A stretch of 38,881 nt of DNA, taken from IMG/VR virus record IMGVR_UViG_3300045988_103004, positions 1 through 38,881 of that record; one strand, written 5' to 3'. Positions 2,916 through 36,514 of this stretch are shown one piece after another. The stretch comes from a virus. Made by a program: the position numbers and the translations under genes. Each line of letters begins with the position of its first letter. The stretch's first letter is position 1. The notes beneath the pieces were generated by a model, which worked only from the letters and a program-made list of their open reading frames with translations, did not search any database and was not told the DNA's origin.

Positions 2916-3650
2916 ATGCAAGTTATTAAAATGAAAATCACGGATTTAAAGCCGTATGAGAAAAATGCAAAGCTTCATCCCGATAAACAAATTAATCAGA
3001 TTGCTGAATCAATTAAAAAATTTGGGATGAATGATCCTATAGGTATATGGGGAAAACAAAATCTAATAGTGGAAGGACATGGACGATATTTAGCATGTTT
3101 GAAATTAGGAATAGAAGAAGTGGACTGTATAAGATTAGATCATTTAACCGATATAGAAAGAAAAGAATATACGTTAATTCATAATAAGACCACTATGAAT
3201 TCGGACTTTGATTTAGAAATACTAGCGGAAGAATTGAAAGACATAGCTAATGATGTAACCATCGATATGTCAGAGTTTGATTTTGAAATTCCGGCATTAG
3301 CAGATAAATTAAGCGAAGATAATTATACACCGGAACTTCCTAAAGTTCCTAAGGCAAAAAGAGGAGATATTTATAAATTAGGTAGACATCGATTGATGTG
3401 TGGTGATGCCACTGAAGAAGATGATGTGGAAAAATTAGTCGATTTAGGAAAAGTCGATATTGTAATAACTGACCCTCCATATAATGTAAATTACGAAGGC
3501 ACAGCAGGACAAATAATGAATGATAACATGGAGTCAAACAGCTTCATTAGTTTTTTAAGTAAAGCGTTTAGTTTGATGAACTTGTTTCTTAAGCCGGGGG
3601 GGGGGCATTCTATGTTTGGCATGCAAGTAGTGAGGTTTATAGCTTTGTAA
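2916..3650 (+). CDS. ParB-like nuclease domain fused to the N-terminal half of a DNA amino-methyltransferase (motif IV DPPY); terminates prematurely after the G10 tract
   Basis: ParB N-terminal domain ('KPYEKNAKLHPDKQINQIAESIKKFGMNDPI...EGHGRYLA'); 'IVITDPPYNVNYEG' motif IV of beta-class N6A/N4C methyltransferases; frame 0 reads 'LKPGGGHSMF...IAL*' through the poly-G. Confidence 0.75.
   Translation: MQVIKMKITDLKPYEKNAKLHPDKQINQIAESIKKFGMNDPIGIWGKQNLIVEGHGRYLACLKLGIEEVDCIRLDHLTDIERKEYTLIHNKTTMNSDFDLEILAEELKDIANDVTIDMSEFDFEIPALADKLSEDNYTPELPKVPKAKRGDIYKLGRHRLMCGDATEEDDVEKLVDLGKVDIVITDPPYNVNYEGTAGQIMNDNMESNSFISFLSKAFSLMNLFLKPGGGHSMFGMQVVRFIAL
3596..3605. repeat. G10 homopolymeric tract inside the methyltransferase gene; frameshift or phase-variation point
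   Basis: ccGGGGGGGGGGcat. The upstream frame (0) and downstream frame (2) would fuse with 11 or 8 G; with 10 G the gene is split. Confidence 0.85.
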
Positions 3651-3739
3651 CTGCACTCTTAAATGCAGGGCTCAAAACAAAGCAAGAGATTATCTGGAAG
3701 AAAAATGCCTTTGCATTAGGTAGGCAAGATTACCAATGG

Positions 3740-4171
3740 ATGCATGAACCTTGTTTATATGGATGGAAAGAAGGAGCAAGCCATTATTTTATCGATGATC
3801 GTAGCTATGCAACGGTAGTTGATGAAAAAGAAATTGATATAAATAAAATGAAACTTCCAGAGTTACGAAGATTGGTAAGAGATTTAATGGCACCTAAAGT
3901 CCCAGTTAGTGTGATAGAAGAGGATAAGCCATTACGAAGTATAGAGCATCCCACAATGAAGCCTATAAGACTTATAGGTAGACTGCTAAATAATTCTAGT
4001 AGACAAAATGAAACCGTCTTAGATTTGTTTGGCGGTTCAGGATCTACTCTTATTGCAGCTGAACAGCTAAATAGAAAGTGTTTGATAATGGAACTAGATC
4101 CAAAATACGTTGATGTGATTATTGATAGATACGAAAAACTAACAGGGATAAAAGCAGAAAAAATAAATTAA
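3740..4171 (+). CDS. C-terminal half of the DNA methyltransferase (motif I FGGSGST); the frame is open from 3593 without an ATG and is the continuation of 2916..3650
   Basis: Frame 2 from 3602 reads 'GAFYVWHASSEVYSFVTALLNAGLKTKQEIIWKKNAFALGRQDYQWMHEPCLYGWK...' (conserved amino-methyltransferase core), then 'LDLFGGSGSTLIAAEQLNRKCLIMELDPKY' (SAM-binding motif I). Confidence 0.75.
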   Translation: MHEPCLYGWKEGASHYFIDDRSYATVVDEKEIDINKMKLPELRRLVRDLMAPKVPVSVIEEDKPLRSIEHPTMKPIRLIGRLLNNSSRQNETVLDLFGGSGSTLIAAEQLNRKCLIMELDPKYVDVIIDRYEKLTGIKAEKIN

Positions 4172-4188: not shown

Positions 4189-5268
4189 ATGAATTTATTT
4201 AGTACAGAGCAAGTAAGTAAATATCATCCAGACAAAGTGGCTGATCAAATAAGTGATGCTATTTTAACTGAATGTTTAAAACAAGACCCTACTTCACATG
4301 TTGCAGTAGAATGCCTTATCAAATCGAATCTAGTCGTTTTAGCTGGTGAGGTGAAAACTAAAGCTAATATTAATTATAAAGATGTTGCTTCTAAGGTTTT
4401 AAGAAAATTACATTATTTAGATGAGTATGAATATCGATTTGAGATTAATATATCGGAACAAAGCCCTGAAATAGATGGAGCAGTTATCAATCAAGAAGAA
4501 GTTGATGAATTGGGTGCAGGTGATCAAGGCATTATGATTGGCTATGCTGATAGAACAACTCAAAGTAAACTACCATGGCCATTTGAACTAGCTAATAAAA
4601 TTATTAATTTGATAGAAACAGATGTTGAAAAGCCTAACTCTATTCTTAAGGGTGATGCAAAAACTCAAGTTACAGCTGATATGGATAATAGCGAACAAAA
4701 AGCAAAATTAATAATAGTTAGTGTTTGTCATAAAAGTGCAGTGGCATTTGATGATGTAAAAAAGTACATAAAAAAGATTATTGATGATAATAGCATTCAA
4801 TATGAAAGTTTAATTGTTAATCCAGGTGGTCCTTGGACAATAGGGGGACCTACTGCTGATTGTGGATTAACAGGAAGAAAGATAGTATGTGACTCTTACG
4901 GGGGGTTTATACCAGTTGGTGGCGGTGCTTTTTCTGGAAAGGATCCTACAAAAGTCGATCGTTCTGCATCCTATATGGTTAGACATATAGCATTAAGAAC
5001 GCTCGAAAAATTCCCACAATATAAAACTTGTGAAATAAGGCTAGCTTATGGAATAGGAATACCACAACCAGTATCAGTTGCTATTAATGTAACACCTCAA
5101 TTTGCAGATATGATAGAGGAAAATAGAGTGAAGCGTTTTGTACTTGCACATTTTGATTTAACACCTAAGGGGATTATAGAAACATTAAATTTGCTAAATG
5201 TAGATTATGAAAAATTAGCGGAAGGATGCCATTACAGATATGACTGGACGAAAACCAATGCCTGCTAG
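4189..5268 (+). CDS. metK: S-adenosylmethionine synthetase (methionine adenosyltransferase), phage-encoded
   Basis: 359 aa; 'KYHPDKVADQISDAILTECL...DP...AVEC', 'GAGDQGIMIGYA' (MetK signature 1), 'DAKTQVT', 'GGGAFSGKDPTKVDRSASY' (MetK signature 2); strong RBS aaaggag. Confidence 0.85.
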   Translation: MNLFSTEQVSKYHPDKVADQISDAILTECLKQDPTSHVAVECLIKSNLVVLAGEVKTKANINYKDVASKVLRKLHYLDEYEYRFEINISEQSPEIDGAVINQEEVDELGAGDQGIMIGYADRTTQSKLPWPFELANKIINLIETDVEKPNSILKGDAKTQVTADMDNSEQKAKLIIVSVCHKSAVAFDDVKKYIKKIIDDNSIQYESLIVNPGGPWTIGGPTADCGLTGRKIVCDSYGGFIPVGGGAFSGKDPTKVDRSASYMVRHIALRTLEKFPQYKTCEIRLAYGIGIPQPVSVAINVTPQFADMIEENRVKRFVLAHFDLTPKGIIETLNLLNVDYEKLAEGCHYRYDWTKTNAC

Positions 5269-5737
5269 ATTAATAGATCCAGCAGAACATAAAAAATCAA
5301 AAGAGCAAATTGATGCAAGACAAGAAATTGAAGCTGGTCTACAAACTACTTCAACTCTTAAATGCCCAGGCTTTCTAAGTCCAGAAGCAAAGAAAGAATG
5401 GCGAAGAATAATGAAACTATATAAACAAATGGATAATGGCATATTATGCGATTTGGATAAAATGGCATTAGTCGCATATTGTGAAGCTGTTTCTATGTAT
5501 AATAAAGCACAAGAAACATGGGCTAAATATAATCAAATAGTTGCTGCGAATCCAGATGCACAAAGAGTACTTGATAAAGCAAGACTTGTCATGAAAGAAC
5601 AAACAAAAATAATGGTTAGTTTGTCAGAACAATTATGCCTTACTCCAGTAGGCCGTGCAAGAATGGGAATGGGAATAGGTAAAAAAGAGCCTAGTGCAAT
5701 AGATAAGTTCTTATCTGAGGATGAGGACGATGTATGA
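5240..5737 (+). CDS. terminase small subunit (P27-family-like)
   Basis: 165 aa; positioned immediately upstream of and overlapping the large terminase; basic N-terminus 'MTGRKPMPARLIDPAEHKKSKEQ' is typical of P27-type TerS. Confidence 0.65.
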   Translation: MTGRKPMPARLIDPAEHKKSKEQIDARQEIEAGLQTTSTLKCPGFLSPEAKKEWRRIMKLYKQMDNGILCDLDKMALVAYCEAVSMYNKAQETWAKYNQIVAANPDAQRVLDKARLVMKEQTKIMVSLSEQLCLTPVGRARMGMGIGKKEPSAIDKFLSEDEDDV

Positions 5738-20030: not shown

Positions 20031-20211
20031 TTTTAGGGCCCTTACTAGAGGGTGTAGAGAAATCAGGCGTAGCTGACTAAATGCTCCCCTCCGTGGATTA
20101 TGGCGAACTGCCGGGCATCAATATGTTGCTGGCGTAACGTTCTAGCCGCTTCAAATATAGATACTGCCGCCTTTTATTTACTCCCCTCACTTTCTAGTAA
20201 GGGCCCTAAAA
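20031..20211. repeat. 181-bp GC-rich element closed by perfect 18-bp terminal inverted repeats (TTTTAGGGCCCTTACTAG ... CTAGTAAGGGCCCTAAAA); MITE-like or structured RNA
   Basis: Perfect reverse-complement arms at 20031..20048 and 20194..20211; the interior is about 50% GC against a roughly 33% genome; internal direct repeats CTCCCCTC (x2) and ACTGCCG (x2); no ORF. Confidence 0.6.
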
Positions 20212-20239: not shown

Positions 20240-21967
20240 ATGGAAAATGAATTAAGATTAAGACTCCATAATAATGGTAAATGGACTGAAATAATCGAAC
20301 AACCTGGCTTAGGAAATTCTTTTGAAAACAAAGCTACGACACTTGTTATAGAATTACCACAAAGCACCTATGGCTTTATGCACTTTTTAGAATTTTTAAA
20401 ACCATCAGGAAGTACTATTTCAACAGGCGCTATTGAAGAAAAAATAGATGATAGCGGAATCCATTATGTGGAATTTAAAGTAGTTAGCGGACTTATTGAT
20501 GAAAGAGGACGCTATCAAATGCAATATGTAGGTAGAAAAGGAAGTCAAACAATTACAGTTGTAAAGAGCGAGTTGAAAGCTTTAGATGTTTTTAAAAGTA
20601 TTAATTCAGGATTAGAAATTTCTATAAGTAATCCAGATTTTATTACATGGGCAACAGAAGAAATAAATAAAATGAGTAGTAGTATTTCCGAAGGCGATAA
20701 ATCAACACTTGAAGAAGCCAAGGCTTATGCTGATAAAAAGATTGCTGAAAAGCACTTAACTATTTATGGCGTTAGTGGCATAGGCGATGAAAACCCAGAA
20801 TTAACAAGAACTTATAATGCCGCAGGAATTAAACTTATTAAAACCAAAATAAATGGTAATATCGAAGTTACTGCTAACGATCCAGCGTTTCAAGAATTTT
20901 TTAACTTTAAAGAATCAACTGATGAACTAGGTAATGTGTTTGTGAACATTCCTCCTATGTCTTTTAAAATTGATAGAATTGAAAATAACGAAGTAAAAGC
21001 TATTTCTGTAAAATTATACGAAACAGGCGATGAAAATTTAGGTTTTGAGGTTCATCCGTTCTTTAGACACTATATTAACGAAACCGAGTGGGATGGTGTT
21101 ACTTCAAGACAAGTAGCTAAATACTTACTTTATTACCAAACAGAAGCTGATGGTGGCGATGGAAAAGTTCATTCTAAGTCTAATAAAAAATATGCAAGCA
21201 ATACATATTTAAATTGGGATAAAGGTAGACAAGCAATTAAAGATACTAAGGAAAGTTATGCGGTGATAAATTGGCATTTCATTTCATTCTTTAGATGGAT
21301 AACCTTGATTTATTTAGCTAGAGTAGATGTTTATAAATTTTTTGAAAAAGAAGATGTAGATGGTAAAGGCGATGAAGGAAATCCTATAGCACAACTATAT
21401 AATGCATGGAATTCAGAAACAGGACTAACAGATAGTATTGTTTCGCATACTGGTATGAATATAGAAAATACATCTATAAAATTATTCAATATTGATGATG
21501 CTTTACATGGCGTTTCATGCGGAGGTATTTATGTAAATAGTGAAGGAAAATATGGCTATTCAAATATCGCAGATTTTGATATTAACAAAGATACAGGAGC
21601 GGTAGAAGCACAGCAAGGAATTTTACAATCCATGTCTGTGGACAATGTAGAAGCTGACAATATAACTAAAATGGGTATTGTTGATGAAAACGAATATCTG
21701 CAAATGCCAGCAGCATTAAGGCTTGCAACATCAGATCTAACTTATGATTGTTCAAAAGCTTATCATAATTACTATTGTTCAAAAGCAAAATTTTGTGGTA
21801 ATCCAGCTGAAAGCGATAATCCTATTGGAAGAGCTCAAATTATATTCTTTGGTTGGACTGATGGACCATGTATAGATAATGGCCTCTTCTATTCTTACTG
21901 TTACTCTGGGGTCTACGACGCGTGGGCCGACCGCTACGGCTGCCGCCTTTGCAAACTCCCTTTATAG
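20240..21967 (+). CDS. DGR target protein (putative receptor-binding tail protein; the C-terminal about 25 aa are encoded by the variable repeat)
   Basis: 575 aa; the 3' end (21883..21952) is homologous to the downstream template repeat with mismatches only at template adenines; C-terminus '...FYSYCYSGVYDAWADRYGCRLCKLPL'. Confidence 0.8.
   Translation: MENELRLRLHNNGKWTEIIEQPGLGNSFENKATTLVIELPQSTYGFMHFLEFLKPSGSTISTGAIEEKIDDSGIHYVEFKVVSGLIDERGRYQMQYVGRKGSQTITVVKSELKALDVFKSINSGLEISISNPDFITWATEEINKMSSSISEGDKSTLEEAKAYADKKIAEKHLTIYGVSGIGDENPELTRTYNAAGIKLIKTKINGNIEVTANDPAFQEFFNFKESTDELGNVFVNIPPMSFKIDRIENNEVKAISVKLYETGDENLGFEVHPFFRHYINETEWDGVTSRQVAKYLLYYQTEADGGDGKVHSKSNKKYASNTYLNWDKGRQAIKDTKESYAVINWHFISFFRWITLIYLARVDVYKFFEKEDVDGKGDEGNPIAQLYNAWNSETGLTDSIVSHTGMNIENTSIKLFNIDDALHGVSCGGIYVNSEGKYGYSNIADFDINKDTGAVEAQQGILQSMSVDNVEADNITKMGIVDENEYLQMPAALRLATSDLTYDCSKAYHNYYCSKAKFCGNPAESDNPIGRAQIIFFGWTDGPCIDNGLFYSYCYSGVYDAWADRYGCRLCKLPL
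21883..21952 (+). repeat. DGR variable repeat (VR)
   Basis: cctcttctattctTactgtTacTCtGgggtcTacGacgcgtggGCcGacCGctacggctgccgcCttTgc; upper-case bases differ from the TR, and every difference lies opposite a TR adenine. Confidence 0.85.
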
Positions 21968-21977
21968 AGGGGTTGGT

Positions 21978-21995
21978 AAGGGGATACTTCCCCTT
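21978..21995. other. GC-rich hairpin (7-bp stem AAGGGGA/TCCCCTT, 4-nt loop TACT) 26 bp downstream of the VR; DGR cruciform/hairpin element
   Basis: Perfect stem-loop immediately 3' of the VR/IMH region, analogous to the hairpin required for efficient homing in characterised DGRs. Confidence 0.55.
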
Positions 21996-22085
21996 ATAAA
22001 ATAAACTTGCGAAGCAAGATAAGTATGATAAAATTTTAAGAAAGGGATTGTATTACCTTTGGCGTAGTTAGTGGCTAGTTTAGTT

Positions 22086-22158
22086 CCTCTTCTATTCTAA
22101 CTGTAACAATAGGGTCAACAACGCGTGGAACAACAACAACTACGGCTGCCGCATTAGC
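22086..22158 (+). repeat. DGR template repeat (TR)
   Basis: cctcttctattctaactgtaacaatagggtcaacaacgcgtggaacaacaacaactacggctgccgcattagc; rich in AAC codons when read in the VR frame; lies between the target gene and the RT. Confidence 0.85.
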
Positions 22159-22284
22159 TAAATAAATAAAATCTTTGTAATACAATTCCTGCTCCCTTGA
22201 GCAAAAGAAAATTCGATAAAGGGGCGGATTAGTAGCGTATAGATAATCGTCGAAAATCCGTTAGAGTTAGCAAAGGATTAAATT

Positions 22285-23295
22285 ATGAAAACATTAAAGA
22301 ACATCTACTCGAACCTTTACCAGCATGACACAATTAGAGATGTACTTACTGAATGTCTAAAAGACAAAAAGTATAGAAAAGAAATGCTGGGACGCTTAGA
22401 AGGTGACATTACTTATGTGCAATCATGCATGGGCACTTTTACCTTTAATAAAAAAGAAACTCATCAAGTGATAATTAGAGATCGTAAAAAAGAAAGAACG
22501 ATAACTATAAGCCCGTACTTTCCTAATAAGATATTTGATTATTTAGTTATTGCTCCATTAAAACCTATGATAAAGAAATCTATGTATAGGTGGAATGTGG
22601 GAAATGTAGAAGGTAGAGGAAAAGACATGGGAATACAGTTTCTTTATTCTCATATAAAAGGTTATAAGTATGCAATCAAACTAGACGTAAAGAAATTCTA
22701 TGACAACATAGACAAAAAGATTTTATTTAAATTGATTAAAAGAAAGGTATCAGATAGCGACTTTTTAAGAATGTATGAAGAAGTTATAGGAACAACTGGT
22801 AAAGGTCTTGATTTAGGCCTAAATTCAAGCCAGTGGCTAGCGAATTACTATTTGCAAGGCCTTGATTACTTCATAAAGCAAGAACTTAAAGCTGAAGTAT
22901 ATGTTCGCTATGTTGATGATATGATTATTCTGGGAAATAATAAAAGGAAATTGCATTATTTCATAAGAGCTATTAATCAATATTTAAAAGAAAAATTAAA
23001 TTTAAAATTAAAAGAAAATTATGCGTTGTTGAATTTAGAAAAAGGTGAAAGTGTGGAATTTGTGGGATACAAAATATCACATAAAGGAATACAACTTATA
23101 AAGCCTTTATTCCATAAGTTTATAAGACTCTACAAAAGAATGAAAGACATGTCAAAAAGACGTGCTAAAACGCTTGTTGCGCTTTGGGGATGGTTCAAAG
23201 CTACAACAGGTTCATACGCTTATTATATAAATCATTTAAGAGATACAATAATGTTCTCTGAAGTTAAAAGGTTATTAAGGAGGACCACAACATGA
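22285..23295 (+). CDS. DGR reverse transcriptase
   Basis: 336 aa; 'LDVKKFYDNID' (RT motif 2), 'LGLNSSQWLANYYLQGLD' (DGR-specific [IL]GxxxSQ motif that replaces QGxxxSP), 'YVRYVDDMIILG' (YxDD catalytic motif). Confidence 0.9.
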   Translation: MKTLKNIYSNLYQHDTIRDVLTECLKDKKYRKEMLGRLEGDITYVQSCMGTFTFNKKETHQVIIRDRKKERTITISPYFPNKIFDYLVIAPLKPMIKKSMYRWNVGNVEGRGKDMGIQFLYSHIKGYKYAIKLDVKKFYDNIDKKILFKLIKRKVSDSDFLRMYEEVIGTTGKGLDLGLNSSQWLANYYLQGLDYFIKQELKAEVYVRYVDDMIILGNNKRKLHYFIRAINQYLKEKLNLKLKENYALLNLEKGESVEFVGYKISHKGIQLIKPLFHKFIRLYKRMKDMSKRRAKTLVALWGWFKATTGSYAYYINHLRDTIMFSEVKRLLRRTTT

Positions 23296-23885
23296 CATCA
23301 GAATTCATAAATAAATTACTAGATGAACTCGAGGGAAGAGGAATAAGAAGAAATACAATTGAATGCATTTTACAAGAAGGATCATCTTTATACTTAGAAA
23401 ATCCTAACGATTTAGATTTTAAAGTAATTGTTAGTTATTATAACCCTAAGGCAGAAACATTTAGTCCTATTGTAATTGATGGCACAGCGGTAGAATGCTG
23501 CTTTTATACGCCACGTGACTGGAATAGGGTTTGTGATTATAAGAAAGCATACTTCATTGTGGAATGCCCAGATATGAAATGCGTATATGGCGACGACTCT
23601 AATTTTAAACGCTATGATGTGCTACATGACAAGAATTTACAAAAATACATAATTAATATCTATGATAAGTTTTTATTTAATGTAGATCCTAATAATAAGA
23701 AAATACAACCATTTAAAAAGAAACGTTTGTGGAATTTCTTATTATTTGCATATCGCATCAAAAATAATTCTTTAGAAGTTACACCAACACAACTTAACAC
23801 AATTCAAAATGCACATGATCAAAAAGTAGAAGTAGAATCATATCAAGTATTATTTGAAGATATTAAAAGAATTGTAAATGCCTAA
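23292..23885 (+). CDS. minimal nucleotidyltransferase-fold protein (Pol-beta superfamily, ANT-like), translationally coupled to the RT
   Basis: 197 aa; 'GSSLYLENPNDLDFKV' fits hG[GS]x9-13Dh[DE]h; ATGA overlap with the RT stop. Confidence 0.55.
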   Translation: MTSEFINKLLDELEGRGIRRNTIECILQEGSSLYLENPNDLDFKVIVSYYNPKAETFSPIVIDGTAVECCFYTPRDWNRVCDYKKAYFIVECPDMKCVYGDDSNFKRYDVLHDKNLQKYIINIYDKFLFNVDPNNKKIQPFKKKRLWNFLLFAYRIKNNSLEVTPTQLNTIQNAHDQKVEVESYQVLFEDIKRIVNA

Positions 23886-23888
23886 GAT

Positions 23889-23929
23889 AAAAGGAGCCCT
23901 AGGAATAACCTAAAGCTCCTTTTTTTTAC
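23889..23929. terminator. bidirectional rho-independent terminator
   Basis: Stem AAGGAGC (23891..23897) / GCTCCTT (23914..23920) followed by T7 (23921..23927); an A-rich stretch lies on the other side. Confidence 0.7.
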
Positions 23930-24120
23930 TTTTTAGATTTCTCTAAATCTTCGCGAATTAAACGCTTAATATAGGCTGATTGTTTGCCTACACCTTGTGA
24001 TTGAATCGCTGCTAATAAATCACCTTCTGTTTGTGGATTAAAGTGCAGCACAAAATCAACCATTTTAACTTTTTTTTGCCATCTTTCTTGTGGCGTGAGT
24101 TTTCTTTCTTTTTCTTCCAT
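23926..24120 (-). CDS. small ribbon-helix-helix-like DNA-binding protein
   Basis: 64 aa; '...GKQSAYIKRLIREDLEK' resembles the C-terminus of Arc/CopG-type RHH regulators. Confidence 0.45.
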   Translation of the reverse strand: MEEKERKLTPQERWQKKVKMVDFVLHFNPQTEGDLLAAIQSQGVGKQSAYIKRLIREDLEKSKK

Positions 24121-32250: not shown

Positions 32251-32694
32251 ATGGAAGAAATAAAAACACCGCTAATGGCGGATTTAAAAAGTCCTGATTT
32301 ATTAACTAAGGAACAATTAGAAGAATTATTACCCGAATTAGATGGAATTATTAGCTGGGCAAAGCAAGTCCAAGACTTCGCACTTAATCAAGCAATTAAA
32401 GGCGAAAAATTTAAAGGCTTTAAAGTAGTAGAAGGTCGTTCACTTAGAAAGTGGAAAGATGAAGAAAAGGTAGCTGATATTCTCGAAGCTGAAGGTTATG
32501 ATGCTTCATTAATTTATGAGAAGAAGCTAAAAGGAATCAGTGCTGTTGAATCTTTAATGGGTAAAAAAGACTTTGCAAAAGTATTAGGCTCATTAGTTGA
32601 TAAACCAGCAGGCAAGCCAACGCTAGTCCCTGAAAGTGATAAGAGACCAACTTATGATGCCACAGCTCAAGCAGTCGCAGACTTTAAAGATTAA
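32251..32694 (+). CDS. hypothetical replication/recombination-module protein
   Basis: 147 aa; strong RBS aaggagg. Confidence 0.4.
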   Translation: MEEIKTPLMADLKSPDLLTKEQLEELLPELDGIISWAKQVQDFALNQAIKGEKFKGFKVVEGRSLRKWKDEEKVADILEAEGYDASLIYEKKLKGISAVESLMGKKDFAKVLGSLVDKPAGKPTLVPESDKRPTYDATAQAVADFKD

Positions 32695-33055
32695 ATCGAG
32701 AAAATTAAAAGATGAACAATGGATCCTAGCATTTCCTGGTTATGCACTTTCAAACAAGGGACGCTGGTACAGTATGAGCCACAAAAGGATTATGAAACAA
32801 ACCCCTAATAGCAGTGGGTATAGCCGAGTGACCATATCACCAGGAAGAAAGCATATTTTGACCCATATAAAAGTGGTAGAGCTATTCGGTGATTGTAAAC
32901 ATAACAAAATACCAGAAGGAGCAACATCACTTAGGGAACTAGGATTATCAATTGACCACTTAGACTCGAATAGACGTAACCCTTCACAAGACAATTTAGA
33001 ACTAATTACTCACGTTGAAAATTGTCGAAGAAGAGAACAAAGAAAAAATAAATAG
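32636..33055 (+). CDS. HNH homing endonuclease-like (NUMOD4-like N-terminus plus HNH_3)
   Basis: 'EQWILAFPGYALSNKGRWYS' (NUMOD4-like), 'DHLDSNRRNPSQDNLELITHVENCR' (HNH); start uncertain, overlaps the upstream gene. Confidence 0.6.
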   Translation: MIRDQLMMPQLKQSQTLKIKSRKLKDEQWILAFPGYALSNKGRWYSMSHKRIMKQTPNSSGYSRVTISPGRKHILTHIKVVELFGDCKHNKIPEGATSLRELGLSIDHLDSNRRNPSQDNLELITHVENCRRREQRKNK

Positions 33056-35656: not shown

Positions 35657-36514
35657 ATGCTTGAAGAAAAGATAATATATCGCCATAAATATGAAATCGA
35701 AGGTATTACACTTCATGAATGGTGTAAACGCAATGGATGTAGTTATACAGTTGCATATAAATTAGCTGCTGAAGGTAAAACGGAAGCAGAAATAAAGAAG
35801 TATTTACTAAAGCACTATTTTAAAAGAGAAGATAACATCTATATTGATGCTTTAGTTGCTACTTCAAAATGGAAAGCAGCTAAAACAAGCTACGAAAGAA
35901 ATTGTGTGCGTTCAGAGTTTGAAGCTAACTGGGGCTCACATCATAAATACGAAGTTTTATGGGATGAAATAACCTTAGGAACTTTTGTATTTAAAGGCGA
36001 AAGGTGGTTACCAGTTCCAGGAACAAAGAGCTATGAATGCTCCAATCAAGGAAGAGTAAGAAAGAAATTACAAGGTGGAATATATAAAATACTTCATCCT
36101 TATGCAAAAAATAGATTTAACAAAAAAGGTAAAGCAAATAGAAAAATGCTTGCAGTTAAATGCGGTAATAAAGAATTTGCCTTATCTAGACTAATTGCTG
36201 AAGTGTTTATCCCACACACAGCTGACGAGAAAATCGTTTTAATAAAAGATAGAAAATGGAAGCATGTGTGGGTTGAGAACTTAGAATGGGTTAGTCGAAA
36301 AAAGGCGGGCTCTAAAACGGGGTACTGCCCTAGTCGTTCAATTGAAGTAGAACGATTAGATGATGAAGGAAATGTCATCGAAACTTATAGATCAGCAAGA
36401 GAAGCTGGAAAAGCTCTATTCATGAGTTATCAAACGGCATTAGATTACTGCCACGGAAGAGTAAGAAAGCCCATGTACAATTTGAGGTTTAAAGATAGAG
36501 GTAATAATTTATGA
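35657..36514 (+). CDS. HNH/NUMOD-type homing endonuclease-like protein
   Basis: 285 aa; 'SYECSNQGRVRKK' (NUMOD4) and 'IETYRSAREAGKALFMSYQTALDYCHGR' (NUMOD1-like HTH); inserted between the polymerase and primase genes. Confidence 0.5.
   Translation: MLEEKIIYRHKYEIEGITLHEWCKRNGCSYTVAYKLAAEGKTEAEIKKYLLKHYFKREDNIYIDALVATSKWKAAKTSYERNCVRSEFEANWGSHHKYEVLWDEITLGTFVFKGERWLPVPGTKSYECSNQGRVRKKLQGGIYKILHPYAKNRFNKKGKANRKMLAVKCGNKEFALSRLIAEVFIPHTADEKIVLIKDRKWKHVWVENLEWVSRKKAGSKTGYCPSRSIEVERLDDEGNVIETYRSAREAGKALFMSYQTALDYCHGRVRKPMYNLRFKDRGNNL

Follow-up and report, generated by a model that had tools for sequence, protein, structure and literature searches.

The viral sequence IMGVR_UViG_3300045988_103004 of the IMG/VR database, analysed here over its full length of 38,881 nucleotides (the window), carries between positions 20240 and 23885 a compact cassette that consists of a tail protein gene, a template repeat (TR), a reverse transcriptase (RT) gene and a gene with a predicted nucleotidyltransferase (NTase) fold. 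This cassette is very probably a functional diversity-generating retroelement (DGR) of a temperate siphovirus from uncultured gut Bacilli. Comparison with related sequences supports an element that is genuine, complete and active, and that diversifies the C-terminus of a baseplate tail protein. DGRs are common in gut phages, and the element itself is therefore unsurprising. As a DGR it is ordinary in kind, with modest variant features: it is Avd-less, an NTase-fold gene is coupled to the RT, its spacer is of the RT-18 type, and codon deletions recur in the variable repeat (VR). The most unusual part of the locus is the NTase-fold gene at 23292-23885, which fell within the range marked by a first-pass annotation of the window and was left uninterpreted there. 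The core reading of that annotation, a complete DGR acting on the C-terminus of a tail protein, is supported. The locus also offers a natural experiment, in that dozens of near-identical phages share an invariant TR and differ in their VRs, within an unannotated target family that is anchored in the baseplate. In phages of uncultured gut Bacilli, this family is a candidate for receptor binding.

Variable and template repeats

The VR (21883-21952, plus strand, 70 nt) encodes residues 549-571 of the 575-aa target protein, and the TR (22086-22158, plus strand, 73 nt) is a non-coding sequence with 21 mutable adenines inside the 317-nt intergenic region upstream of the RT gene. The first-pass annotation had located this repeat pair correctly. 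Two of its details required correction: the gap between the repeats is 133 nt instead of 130, and the VR does not form the last 70 nt of the gene but ends 15 nt before the end of the stop codon. In a gapped alignment the repeats differ by 14 substitutions plus one 3-nt gap, and all mismatches are at codon position 1 or 2. The earlier statement that the substitutions are confined to TR adenines held on realignment for 14 of 14 (hypergeometric P = 6e-10 for all 14 mismatches on 21 adenine columns out of 70). However, not all of them can be ascribed to diversification. The last two adenine mismatches (TR positions 22153 and 22156; CTTTGC in the VR against ATTAGC in the TR) are identical in all family members, including the 37-41%-identical L001 and L002 (relatives are designated here by locus, L, or protein, P, number). 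Because these two 3'-most differences are fixed, like those between the initiation of mutagenic homing (IMH) element and its TR counterpart IMH*, only 12 of the 14 substitutions reflect diversification.

Read in the frame of the target, the TR gives LFYSNCNNRVNNAWNNNNYGCRIS* (CTC TTC TAT TCT AAC TGT AAC AAT AGG GTC AAC AAC GCG TGG AAC AAC AAC AAC TAC GGC TGC CGC ATT AGC TAA), with eight AAC codons in addition to AAT, AGG, TAT and TAC. The codon correspondence listed in the first pass, in which AAC, AAT and AGG of the TR are matched in the VR by TAC, TAC, TCT, GGG, TAC, GAC, GCC, GAC and CGC, is accurate. The diversified part of the VR extends over approximately 21890-21936 and comprises all TR-adenine codons from TAT to TAC; the window's own substitutions lie within 21896-21933. 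No stop codon can arise by adenine substitution in the TR codons of the window, and the theoretical repertoire of the 12 codons amounts to 4.4e12 DNA variants and 1.8e12 peptide variants.

The 3' end of the VR is formed by an IMH-like element (21935-21952, plus strand), in which the GC-rich TACGGCTGCCGC is followed by CTTTGC, the position of the IMH*-like ATTAGC in the TR. The difference between CTTTGCAAA and ATTAGCTAA is fixed in all family loci. These fixed 3' differences of the VR encode an invariant R-L-C-K motif, and R569, C571 and K572 are invariant in the target. A GC-rich stretch common to both repeats and then fixed differences are what would be expected of an IMH/IMH* boundary, and the element is regarded here as a putative one. 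Within the whole window the 12-mer TACGGCTGCCGC has just two copies, one at the 3' end of each repeat, which indicates a single target. Gapped alignments also pick up weak similarity upstream of both repeat cores, which is regarded as over-extension of the alignment.

Variation among natural relatives follows the same adenine rule. The target protein falls into a 70-sequence cluster at 90% identity, drawn from other assemblies, in which 11 full-length (576-aa), near-identical natural target proteins were read. Upstream of the IMH-like element, each of the 12 TR codons that contain an adenine is polymorphic among these 11 variants, with up to seven residues per site, whereas the 10 codons without adenine are all invariant (Fisher p = 1.5e-6). 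Every full-length member read carries a different VR. The window, L004 and L022 have one and the same TR sequence but three different VRs. The variation among related phages that the first-pass annotation had suggested looking for is thus present, with differences only at TR-adenine codons and an invariant TR. Because the VRs vary at these codons while the TR stays identical, the element appears to be active in nature. In L009, the TR has three substitutions relative to that of the window, two of them at non-adenine bases, and all three are mirrored in the L009 VR, a signature of TR-to-VR transfer. Adenine-specific VR/TR pairs occur also in the relatives L001, L002, L009, L010, L036 and L039. 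An exact-TR scan of IMG/VR gave no match.

The lengths of 70 and 73 nt reflect an in-frame gap, one of four consecutive AAC codons of the TR having no counterpart in the VR; the VR-TR spacing is accordingly 203 nt in the window and 206 nt in relatives, and the protein has 575 residues against 576. A VR shorter than its TR by whole codons, always within AAC tracts, is found in three independent loci: by one codon in the window (21926-21934 against 22129-22140), by two in L037 (~3640-3690 against ~3850-3900) and by three, at two sites, in L036 (3573-3643 against 3799-3878). In six other loci of the clade the two repeats are of equal length. These in-frame deletions suggest that the register occasionally slips as cDNA is made or integrated; VRs would then diversify in length as well as by substitution.

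Some related sequences carry fused repeats. In P0020 and P0028 (572 aa), two proteins from the same cluster as the window target, a single fused repeat makes the C-terminus read as the translated TR (...NNNNYGCRIS), and in L018 (3710-3975) an adenine-poor VR-like sequence is joined directly to the spacer downstream of the TR. These three cases are either an assembly collapse of VR and TR or real VR/TR recombination that deleted the intervening ~130 nt.

The first pass had also reported a GC-rich hairpin with a 7-bp stem and a 4-nt loop after the VR, and this hairpin, AAGGGGA-TACT-TCCCCTT, is found at 21978-21995 (plus strand), 25 nt beyond the end of VR/TR homology. It is preceded by the conserved GGGGTTGG and is a candidate target-recognition hairpin or cruciform, with a DNA fold of -11.2 kcal/mol (z = -2.6) and a stem of 7-8 bp. 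The stem is conserved in 6 distinct loci, in L001, L002, L010, L013 and L024 as TAAGGGG-loop-CCCCTTA, and the loop varies in length and sequence. Known hairpins of phage DGRs have a stem of 7-10 bp and a 4-nt GRNA loop, and are situated 4-34 bp from the VR; the window hairpin agrees with them in stem length and distance. Another small hairpin, across the stop codon of the target gene (21956-21972), was dismissed, its conservation being explained by coding constraint.

Reverse transcriptase and the RNA around the template repeat

The RT gene (22285-23295, plus strand) encodes a basic protein of 336 aa (isoelectric point, pI, 9.85). The two motifs read from it in the first pass, LGLNSSQW and YVDD, are both present, and the protein matches the RVT_1 profile (E = 2.9e-14) and phrog_1423 (221 bits, E = 7e-65). 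Its closest matches in 50,697 phage records are the RTs of DGR phages, namely Butyrivibrio phages Arawn and Idris, Lactobacillus phage LBR48, Faecalibacterium phage Lagaffe (FP_Lagaffe) and crAss-like phages, and Bordetella phage records are also among the matches, all of which are below 35% identity. In a BLASTP comparison with Brt, the RT of Bordetella phage BPP-1 (E = 2e-21), LGLNSSQWLAN aligns with IGSLTSQLFAN and YVDD with YMDD. The combination of [LIV]GxxxSQ and YxDD motifs with greater closeness to DGR RTs than to other classes, as judged by general RT and phage profiles, assigns the protein to the DGR class at the sequence level. In a collection of 5.8 billion proteins, the clade of this RT comprises 28 clusters at 47% identity or more, after which there is a gap to 38% or less.

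The TR regions of eight loci from this RT clade were aligned, and the consensus RNA structure was compared with controls in which the pairing partners were slid and with 500 shuffles. The consensus consists of three helices. P1 is formed by a 5' arm, GGGATTGTATTAC (22044-22056, plus strand), and a 3' arm, GTAATACAATTCC (22177-22189, plus strand), which enclose the TR; it was detected both as an inverted repeat (I11) and in the RNAalifold consensus, and it shows compensatory changes. Directly after P1 comes P2 (22190-22203, plus strand), a stem-loop of TGCTC-CCTT-GAGCA with a 5-bp stem; 95% of its cells are paired, and three of its five pairs carry double compensatory changes. A conserved A-rich single strand, AAAAGAAAATTCGATAAAGG (22203-22222, plus strand), follows P2, and then P3 (GGCGGATT...AATCCGTT; 22223-22262, plus strand, with arms at 22223-22230 and 22255-22262), a candidate RT-binding stem-loop with double compensatory changes in six of eight pairs. 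Over the three helices, the paired fraction of cells is 91%, against 34-47% in the slid controls; compensatory double changes affect 13 pairs, against at most three in those controls. None of the 500 shuffles reaches the observed values.

The TR-RT spacer matches Rfam RF03021, the RT-18 RNA, at 22191-22278 (plus strand; 39.3 bits, E = 2.5e-5) over the full model (1-84), and P3 lies within this match. The gathering score of the family is passed in L001, L002, L010, L013 and L024 (42.3-44.6 bits). RT-1 to RT-19 were described as motifs adjoining RT genes, and only RT-10, the BPP-1 spacer, was tied to DGRs, the other motifs being merely speculated about (Weinberg et al., 2017). The match would thus connect an orphan Rfam motif with a defined function, that of a DGR spacer RNA. 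The RT-18 model differs from the window RNA in lacking the long-range P1 duplex.

The arrangement of these helices resembles that in BPP-1. In the cryo-electron microscopy structure of the BPP-1 ribonucleoprotein, the region 3' of the TR contains, in order, an Avd-binding stem-loop, the primer, the cPRT Stop, the single-stranded Thumb Ring and a long RT-binding stem-loop. The cPRT Stop is composed of a duplex between TR-upstream and spacer sequence, a short stem-loop and unpaired adenosines, and its duplex is 13 bp on average in 207 DGRs. From P1 onward the window has the same order: P1, P2, AAAAGAAAA with the conserved single strand, and P3. By analogy, P1 would correspond to the duplex and P2 to the stem-loop of the cPRT Stop, and the A-rich single strand to the adenosines of the cPRT Stop and the Thumb Ring. 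Between the TR and P1 there are only 18 A/T-rich nt, so that the Avd-binding stem-loop has no counterpart here.

Transcription of the TR RNA may begin near the 5' arm of P1. A consensus scan found a promoter-like sequence, TTGCGA-N16-TAAAAT with an extended -10 TG, at 22007-22034 (plus strand), which would place the start at about this arm; promoter-like sites are not enriched over shuffles in the AT-rich TR region, and the site is a candidate in this sense.

The diversified tail protein

The target gene (20240-21967, plus strand) encodes 575 aa, arranged as a BppU-like N-terminal anchor domain, a conserved core and the C-terminal VR. The protein has no match in Pfam, PHROG or NCBIfam and no protein match in the 50,697 phage records, in which no near-DNA match was found either, and its homologs form only 16 clusters. 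The AlphaFold2 (AF2) model has an overall predicted local distance difference test (pLDDT) score of 54; for residues 1-115 the blocks of ten residues range from 37 to 83 and are mostly at 61-83. In a Foldseek search, the N-terminal part of this low-confidence model matched the TP901-1 BppU chains (4v96; E = 4e-7) and baseplate chains of 80alpha and NF5, and the Pfam domain BppU_N is found in two target homologs (E = 8e-8). The target is therefore taken as anchored in the baseplate, since its N-terminal model resembles BppU and BppU_N occurs in these two homologs. The earlier proposal of a tail protein is supported by this resemblance, which points, more specifically, to a BppU-type baseplate protein encoded in the distal tail module.

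The fold of the VR-bearing domain, for which the first pass had proposed a C-type lectin as in Mtd, the BPP-1 target protein, is a different matter. In 17 members of the target family, no lectin-type or other Pfam family matched the C-terminus. AF2 pLDDT is below 50 over residues 491-575 (the C-terminal 85), and no fold of the VR domain was derived from the model. An hhalign comparison of the target family with Mtd picked out the expected motifs but was not significant (E = 0.3). For the distant homologs P0010-P0016, hhalign aligns a GGTD...WG...W.W motif with Mtd, again at a score that is not significant (E = 0.08), and comparison of the family profile with PDB sequences returned noise only.

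P0010-P0016 share the N-terminal anchor domain of the window target and have Mtd-like VR ends ('...GG.W...GFR'). Conversely, L013 (938-4642), P0009 and P0016 (about 1000 aa) carry the same VR class (...F[FY]S.W...AW...G.RLCK.P) on much longer N-terminal regions. These sequence combinations indicate that the VR-bearing domain is exchanged as a module.

An RT-coupled nucleotidyltransferase-fold gene

The third gene of the cassette (23292-23885, plus strand) encodes a protein of 197 aa, referred to here as ORF197 (ORF, open reading frame). Its ATG start overlaps the RT stop codon (ATGA), and it is a candidate DGR accessory. ORF197 has no match in Pfam, PHROG, NCBIfam, PADLOC or PDB sequences and no protein match in the 50,697 phage records. 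Its family comprises 35 clusters in a word-indexed search and 53 representatives of 1.84 billion in an exhaustive profile search. The residues G30-S31, D40-x-D42, E91, D94 and K144-R-L-W-N-F are invariant in the family, and the AF2 model is confident (pLDDT 94.7). The hG[GS]-x9-13-Dh[DE]h signature, a third acidic residue and an alpha/beta NTase fold in the model together point to membership in the Pol-beta superfamily of NTases, with residues of catalytic type conserved.

The association with the RT is close. Homologs of ORF197 at 41% identity or more are found immediately 3' of a DGR RT, overlapping it or within a few nt, in all of the ~19 distinct loci with enough upstream DNA. The targets in ORF197-bearing loci differ (the window family, a DUF6273 protein and a 1235-aa protein), as do the downstream genes. 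Furthermore, the family goes with two RT lineages whose mutual identity is only 26-28%, whereas the NTase-fold proteins of the two are 41-49% identical. A distant relative, P0088 (E = 1.7e-15; L033 4438-4950), is a 170-aa protein with GSS...DID and QKAHD; it is encoded among phage replication genes (single-stranded DNA-binding protein, SSB; methylase; DUF1064), and within 5 kb of it there is no RT gene. In L038, an RT 38% identical to that of the window and a target with an Mtd_N domain are followed by an overlapping 157-aa ORF (5046-5519) with GS-x13-DID and LTETQL, whose profile comparison with the ORF197 family was not significant. L019 and L020 of IMG/VR had been considered as weak relatives, but both match the pattern by chance and lie antisense to the tape-measure gene of a phage with high GC content.

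ORF197 is encoded in a lineage that lacks both Avd and the Avd-binding stem-loop. The bAvd Pfam profile matches none of the three cassette proteins and none of 19 other small ORFs of the window, and tblastn searches of the window with BPP-1 Avd or an Avd-like protein of a sister clade gave no match. Only 118 nt separate the target stop codon from the TR, which leaves no room there for avd. Avd is not universal, being present in ~74% of DGRs. The known accessory classes are Avd, HRDC, MSL and CH1, and an accessory gene of any kind is missing from 29% of DGRs (Wu et al., 2018). The sister DGR lineage (L011, L012, L015, L016, L017, L026, L029, L031 and L032), whose RT is only 26-28% identical to that of the window, is arranged as a DUF6273 target, an Avd-like 138-aa ORF, TR, RT and NTase-fold gene. 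The 138-aa ORF is conserved in nine of nine sister-clade loci, and its bAvd match (E = 1e-4) is below the cut-off. In L011/L012 and L015, an ORF of 87-89 aa overlaps the end of the RT and the start of the NTase-fold gene.

Among the known Avd-less architectures (type A, TR-RT without accessory, and type E, with CH1; Wu et al., 2018), the window cassette shares the absence of avd, HRDC and MSL and the presence of a small conserved gene without assigned function that flanks the RT. CH1 was described as an acidic protein (pI 4.7 +/- 0.2) of 160-169 aa without motifs, encoded in avd-less DGRs (Wu et al., 2018). In contrast, ORF197 family proteins have 190-223 aa, a pI of 7.7 +/- 1.0 (6.2 in the window) and the GS...DxD signature and fold of NTases. 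This description sets them apart, and by size and charge the family is not CH1. ORF197 resembles ANT(3'')(9)/AadA, KNTase/ANT(4') and Hailong HalB in having an N-terminal alpha/beta NTase domain with GS and DxD and a C-terminal helical domain. However, sequence identity to these proteins is 8-16% and TM-scores are 0.35-0.54, ORF197 has 197 aa against ~250 for ANT enzymes, and its context is a retroelement and not resistance or defence. No paper linking a nucleotidyltransferase to DGRs was found in the literature.

Working model and alternative explanations

The features described above can be combined into a working model of five steps. An RNA bearing the TR (22086-22158) would be transcribed, with the TR held in a loop closed by P1, a 12-pair duplex of two 13-nt arms. 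P1 would be followed by the short stem-loop P2, the A-rich single strand and the longer stem-loop P3. The RT (22285-23295) would then copy the TR, possibly with priming in cis, into cDNA and misincorporate opposite adenines. This cDNA would replace the VR (21883-21952) at the 3' end of the target gene (20240-21967), the GC-rich IMH-like element and the downstream hairpin guiding homing. Twelve codons would thereby be randomised free of stops, giving ~1.8e12 peptides, and receptor specificity would presumably be changed.

The model follows the prototype DGR of BPP-1 (mtd-avd-TR-brt). The two elements have in common the order of target, TR and RT at the end of the tail module, a VR at the C-terminus of a tail protein, and adenine-specific mutagenesis from AAC-rich TR codons. 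They also share a GC-rich IMH-like boundary with fixed VR/TR differences, a GC-rich hairpin tens of nt past the VR, and, before the RT gene, a TR-enclosing duplex, a short stem-loop, adenosines, a single strand and a long stem-loop. On the other hand, BPP-1 has avd and an Avd-binding stem-loop immediately 3' of the TR, both of which are missing in the window. Its spacer is RT-10 in place of RT-18, its TR has 134 nt against 73 nt, and its RT is 23% identical to that of the window. The BPP-1 target is Mtd, whereas that of the window is a BppU-like protein of an uncharacterised family; in addition, the window hairpin has a loop other than GRNA, and an NTase-fold gene is coupled to the window RT.

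Two other explanations concern the element as a whole. The VR/TR differences might be a relic of past activity in an element that no longer diversifies in the window phage. The window VR that is one codon shorter than its TR, the single VR sequence displayed by a consensus contig, and the collapsed or fused VR/TR in some related contigs could be read in this way. However, the RT ORF is intact with YVDD, as are the IMH-like element, the hairpin and the RNA helices, relatives with the identical TR all have different VRs, and a different VR is found in every full-length member read from the 70-sequence cluster; a relic is therefore improbable. Still more remote is the idea of an RT of a different class (a retron, a group II intron or a defence-associated DRT/Abi) beside a repeat that is an unrelated duplication. 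Generic RT-domain matches to group II, Drt3a, retron St85 and UG17 models would be in its favour, but they score far below the curated cut-offs (81 bits against 300 for group II and 70 against 200 for Drt3a), and assignments of the RT as a defence RT, Abi, retron or group II protein were rejected on score. The score of 221 bits to phrog_1423 and the nearest phage RTs, those of DGR phages, speak for the DGR class. Moreover, an unrelated duplication would leave the adenine-specific pattern (P = 6e-10) and the population variation unexplained, and this idea can for practical purposes be set aside.

Several points weigh against the interpretation of the locus as an active DGR with a receptor-binding target and a third gene that serves the retroelement. 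The support for the DGR consists of sequence comparison. The loop of the window hairpin, TACT, is variable among relatives and does not fit the GRNA consensus of phage DGR hairpins, and the RT-18 score of the window, 39.3 bits, is under the gathering score of 41.3, that is, 2 bits below threshold. The comparisons did not verify the C-type-lectin fold of the target, so that receptor binding by the VR is an analogy. As to ORF197, the wider NTase-fold family is not RT-obligate, given the absence of an RT within 5 kb of P0088; the window RT may need no accessory factor, since 29% of known DGRs have no accessory gene; and the NTase-fold protein is not a simple replacement of Avd, since the sister lineage has an Avd-like ORF as well.

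The last three points also bear on a rival account in which the DGR is real and ORF197 is a phage gene in its own right (perhaps an MNT-type antitoxin-like protein, an anti-defence NTase or another small enzyme) that is co-inherited with the RT in one transcription unit. The relative of ORF197 among replication genes (SSB, methylase), the DGRs that function without an accessory gene and the Avd-like gene already present in the sister clade all agree with such a bystander, as do the lack of any annotated function, defence or Pfam match in the family and the fact that RT, Avd and RNA satisfy cDNA synthesis in BPP-1, which requires only these three. This account has a chance somewhat short of even. 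It is opposed by the position of each close homolog examined, directly 3' of a DGR RT though targets and downstream genes change, and by the two RT lineages, which are ~26% identical to each other and whose ORF197 proteins are 41-49% identical, so that hitch-hiking from one ancestor is not an easy explanation. The family is, moreover, very rare (53 representatives among 1.84 billion), and ORF197 has no HEPN-like partner gene next to it. An accessory factor of the retroelement is on balance the more likely role of ORF197, which is favoured slightly over a co-inherited bystander. The protein might bind the RNA or the RT as a cofactor, or it might act enzymatically on cDNA or RNA. More tentatively, and with confidence well under an even chance, ORF197 can be proposed as an unrecognised class of DGR accessory that is coupled to the RT and exchanged between divergent lineages. 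It would partly replace Avd here or carry out an unassigned step, such as nucleotide addition to or processing of cDNA or RNA, or cDNA integration; the codon deletions in the VR would then reflect a looser template register. A three-part system of the TR RNA (~240 nt), the 336-aa RT and the 197-aa protein could be reconstituted to test how Avd-less DGRs work and which factor acts after cDNA synthesis, and such a compact DGR cassette could suit the engineering of targeted mutagenesis.

Genomic context and further observations

The window has the gene order of small and large terminase, portal, protease, capsid, connectors, major tail protein, tape measure (13222), Dit (14627), four large distal-tail ORFs and the DGR cassette. 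The order of target, TR and RT after the tail genes, noted in the first pass, is borne out, the cassette following directly on the tape measure, Dit and distal tail genes. After the cassette come a holin, a serine recombinase (25540, minus strand), repressors, a helicase and a DNA polymerase. The window is a temperate siphovirus. The cassette is closed by a terminator-like hairpin with a U-run at 23889-23931 (plus strand; inverted repeat I13), which has an RNA fold of -17.9 kcal/mol (z = -2.6) and is followed by UUUUUUUU. This terminator may be bidirectional and shared with the convergent gene at 23926-24120 (minus strand).

Related copies were found as prophages in metagenome-assembled genomes (MAGs) labelled Bacilli and in contigs from human-gut and rabbit-gut metagenomes, and a scan of genome contigs for relatives yielded only two distant loci. 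A complete copy of the cassette, L002 (JBBAEU010000025.1), is in a MAG labelled Brumimicrobium (Bacteroidota), the other labelled relatives being Bacilli; this label could be a binning error or point to a wider host range.

Most of the intergenic region that separates the DGR target gene from the last distal-tail gene is occupied by an inverted repeat of 24 nt, whose arms (20031-20054 and 20188-20211) are 92% complementary and 133 nt apart. Three ORFs of the HNH-endonuclease type are present in the window, one beside the terminase (2451-2762) and two in the replication module (32636-33055 and 35657-36514).

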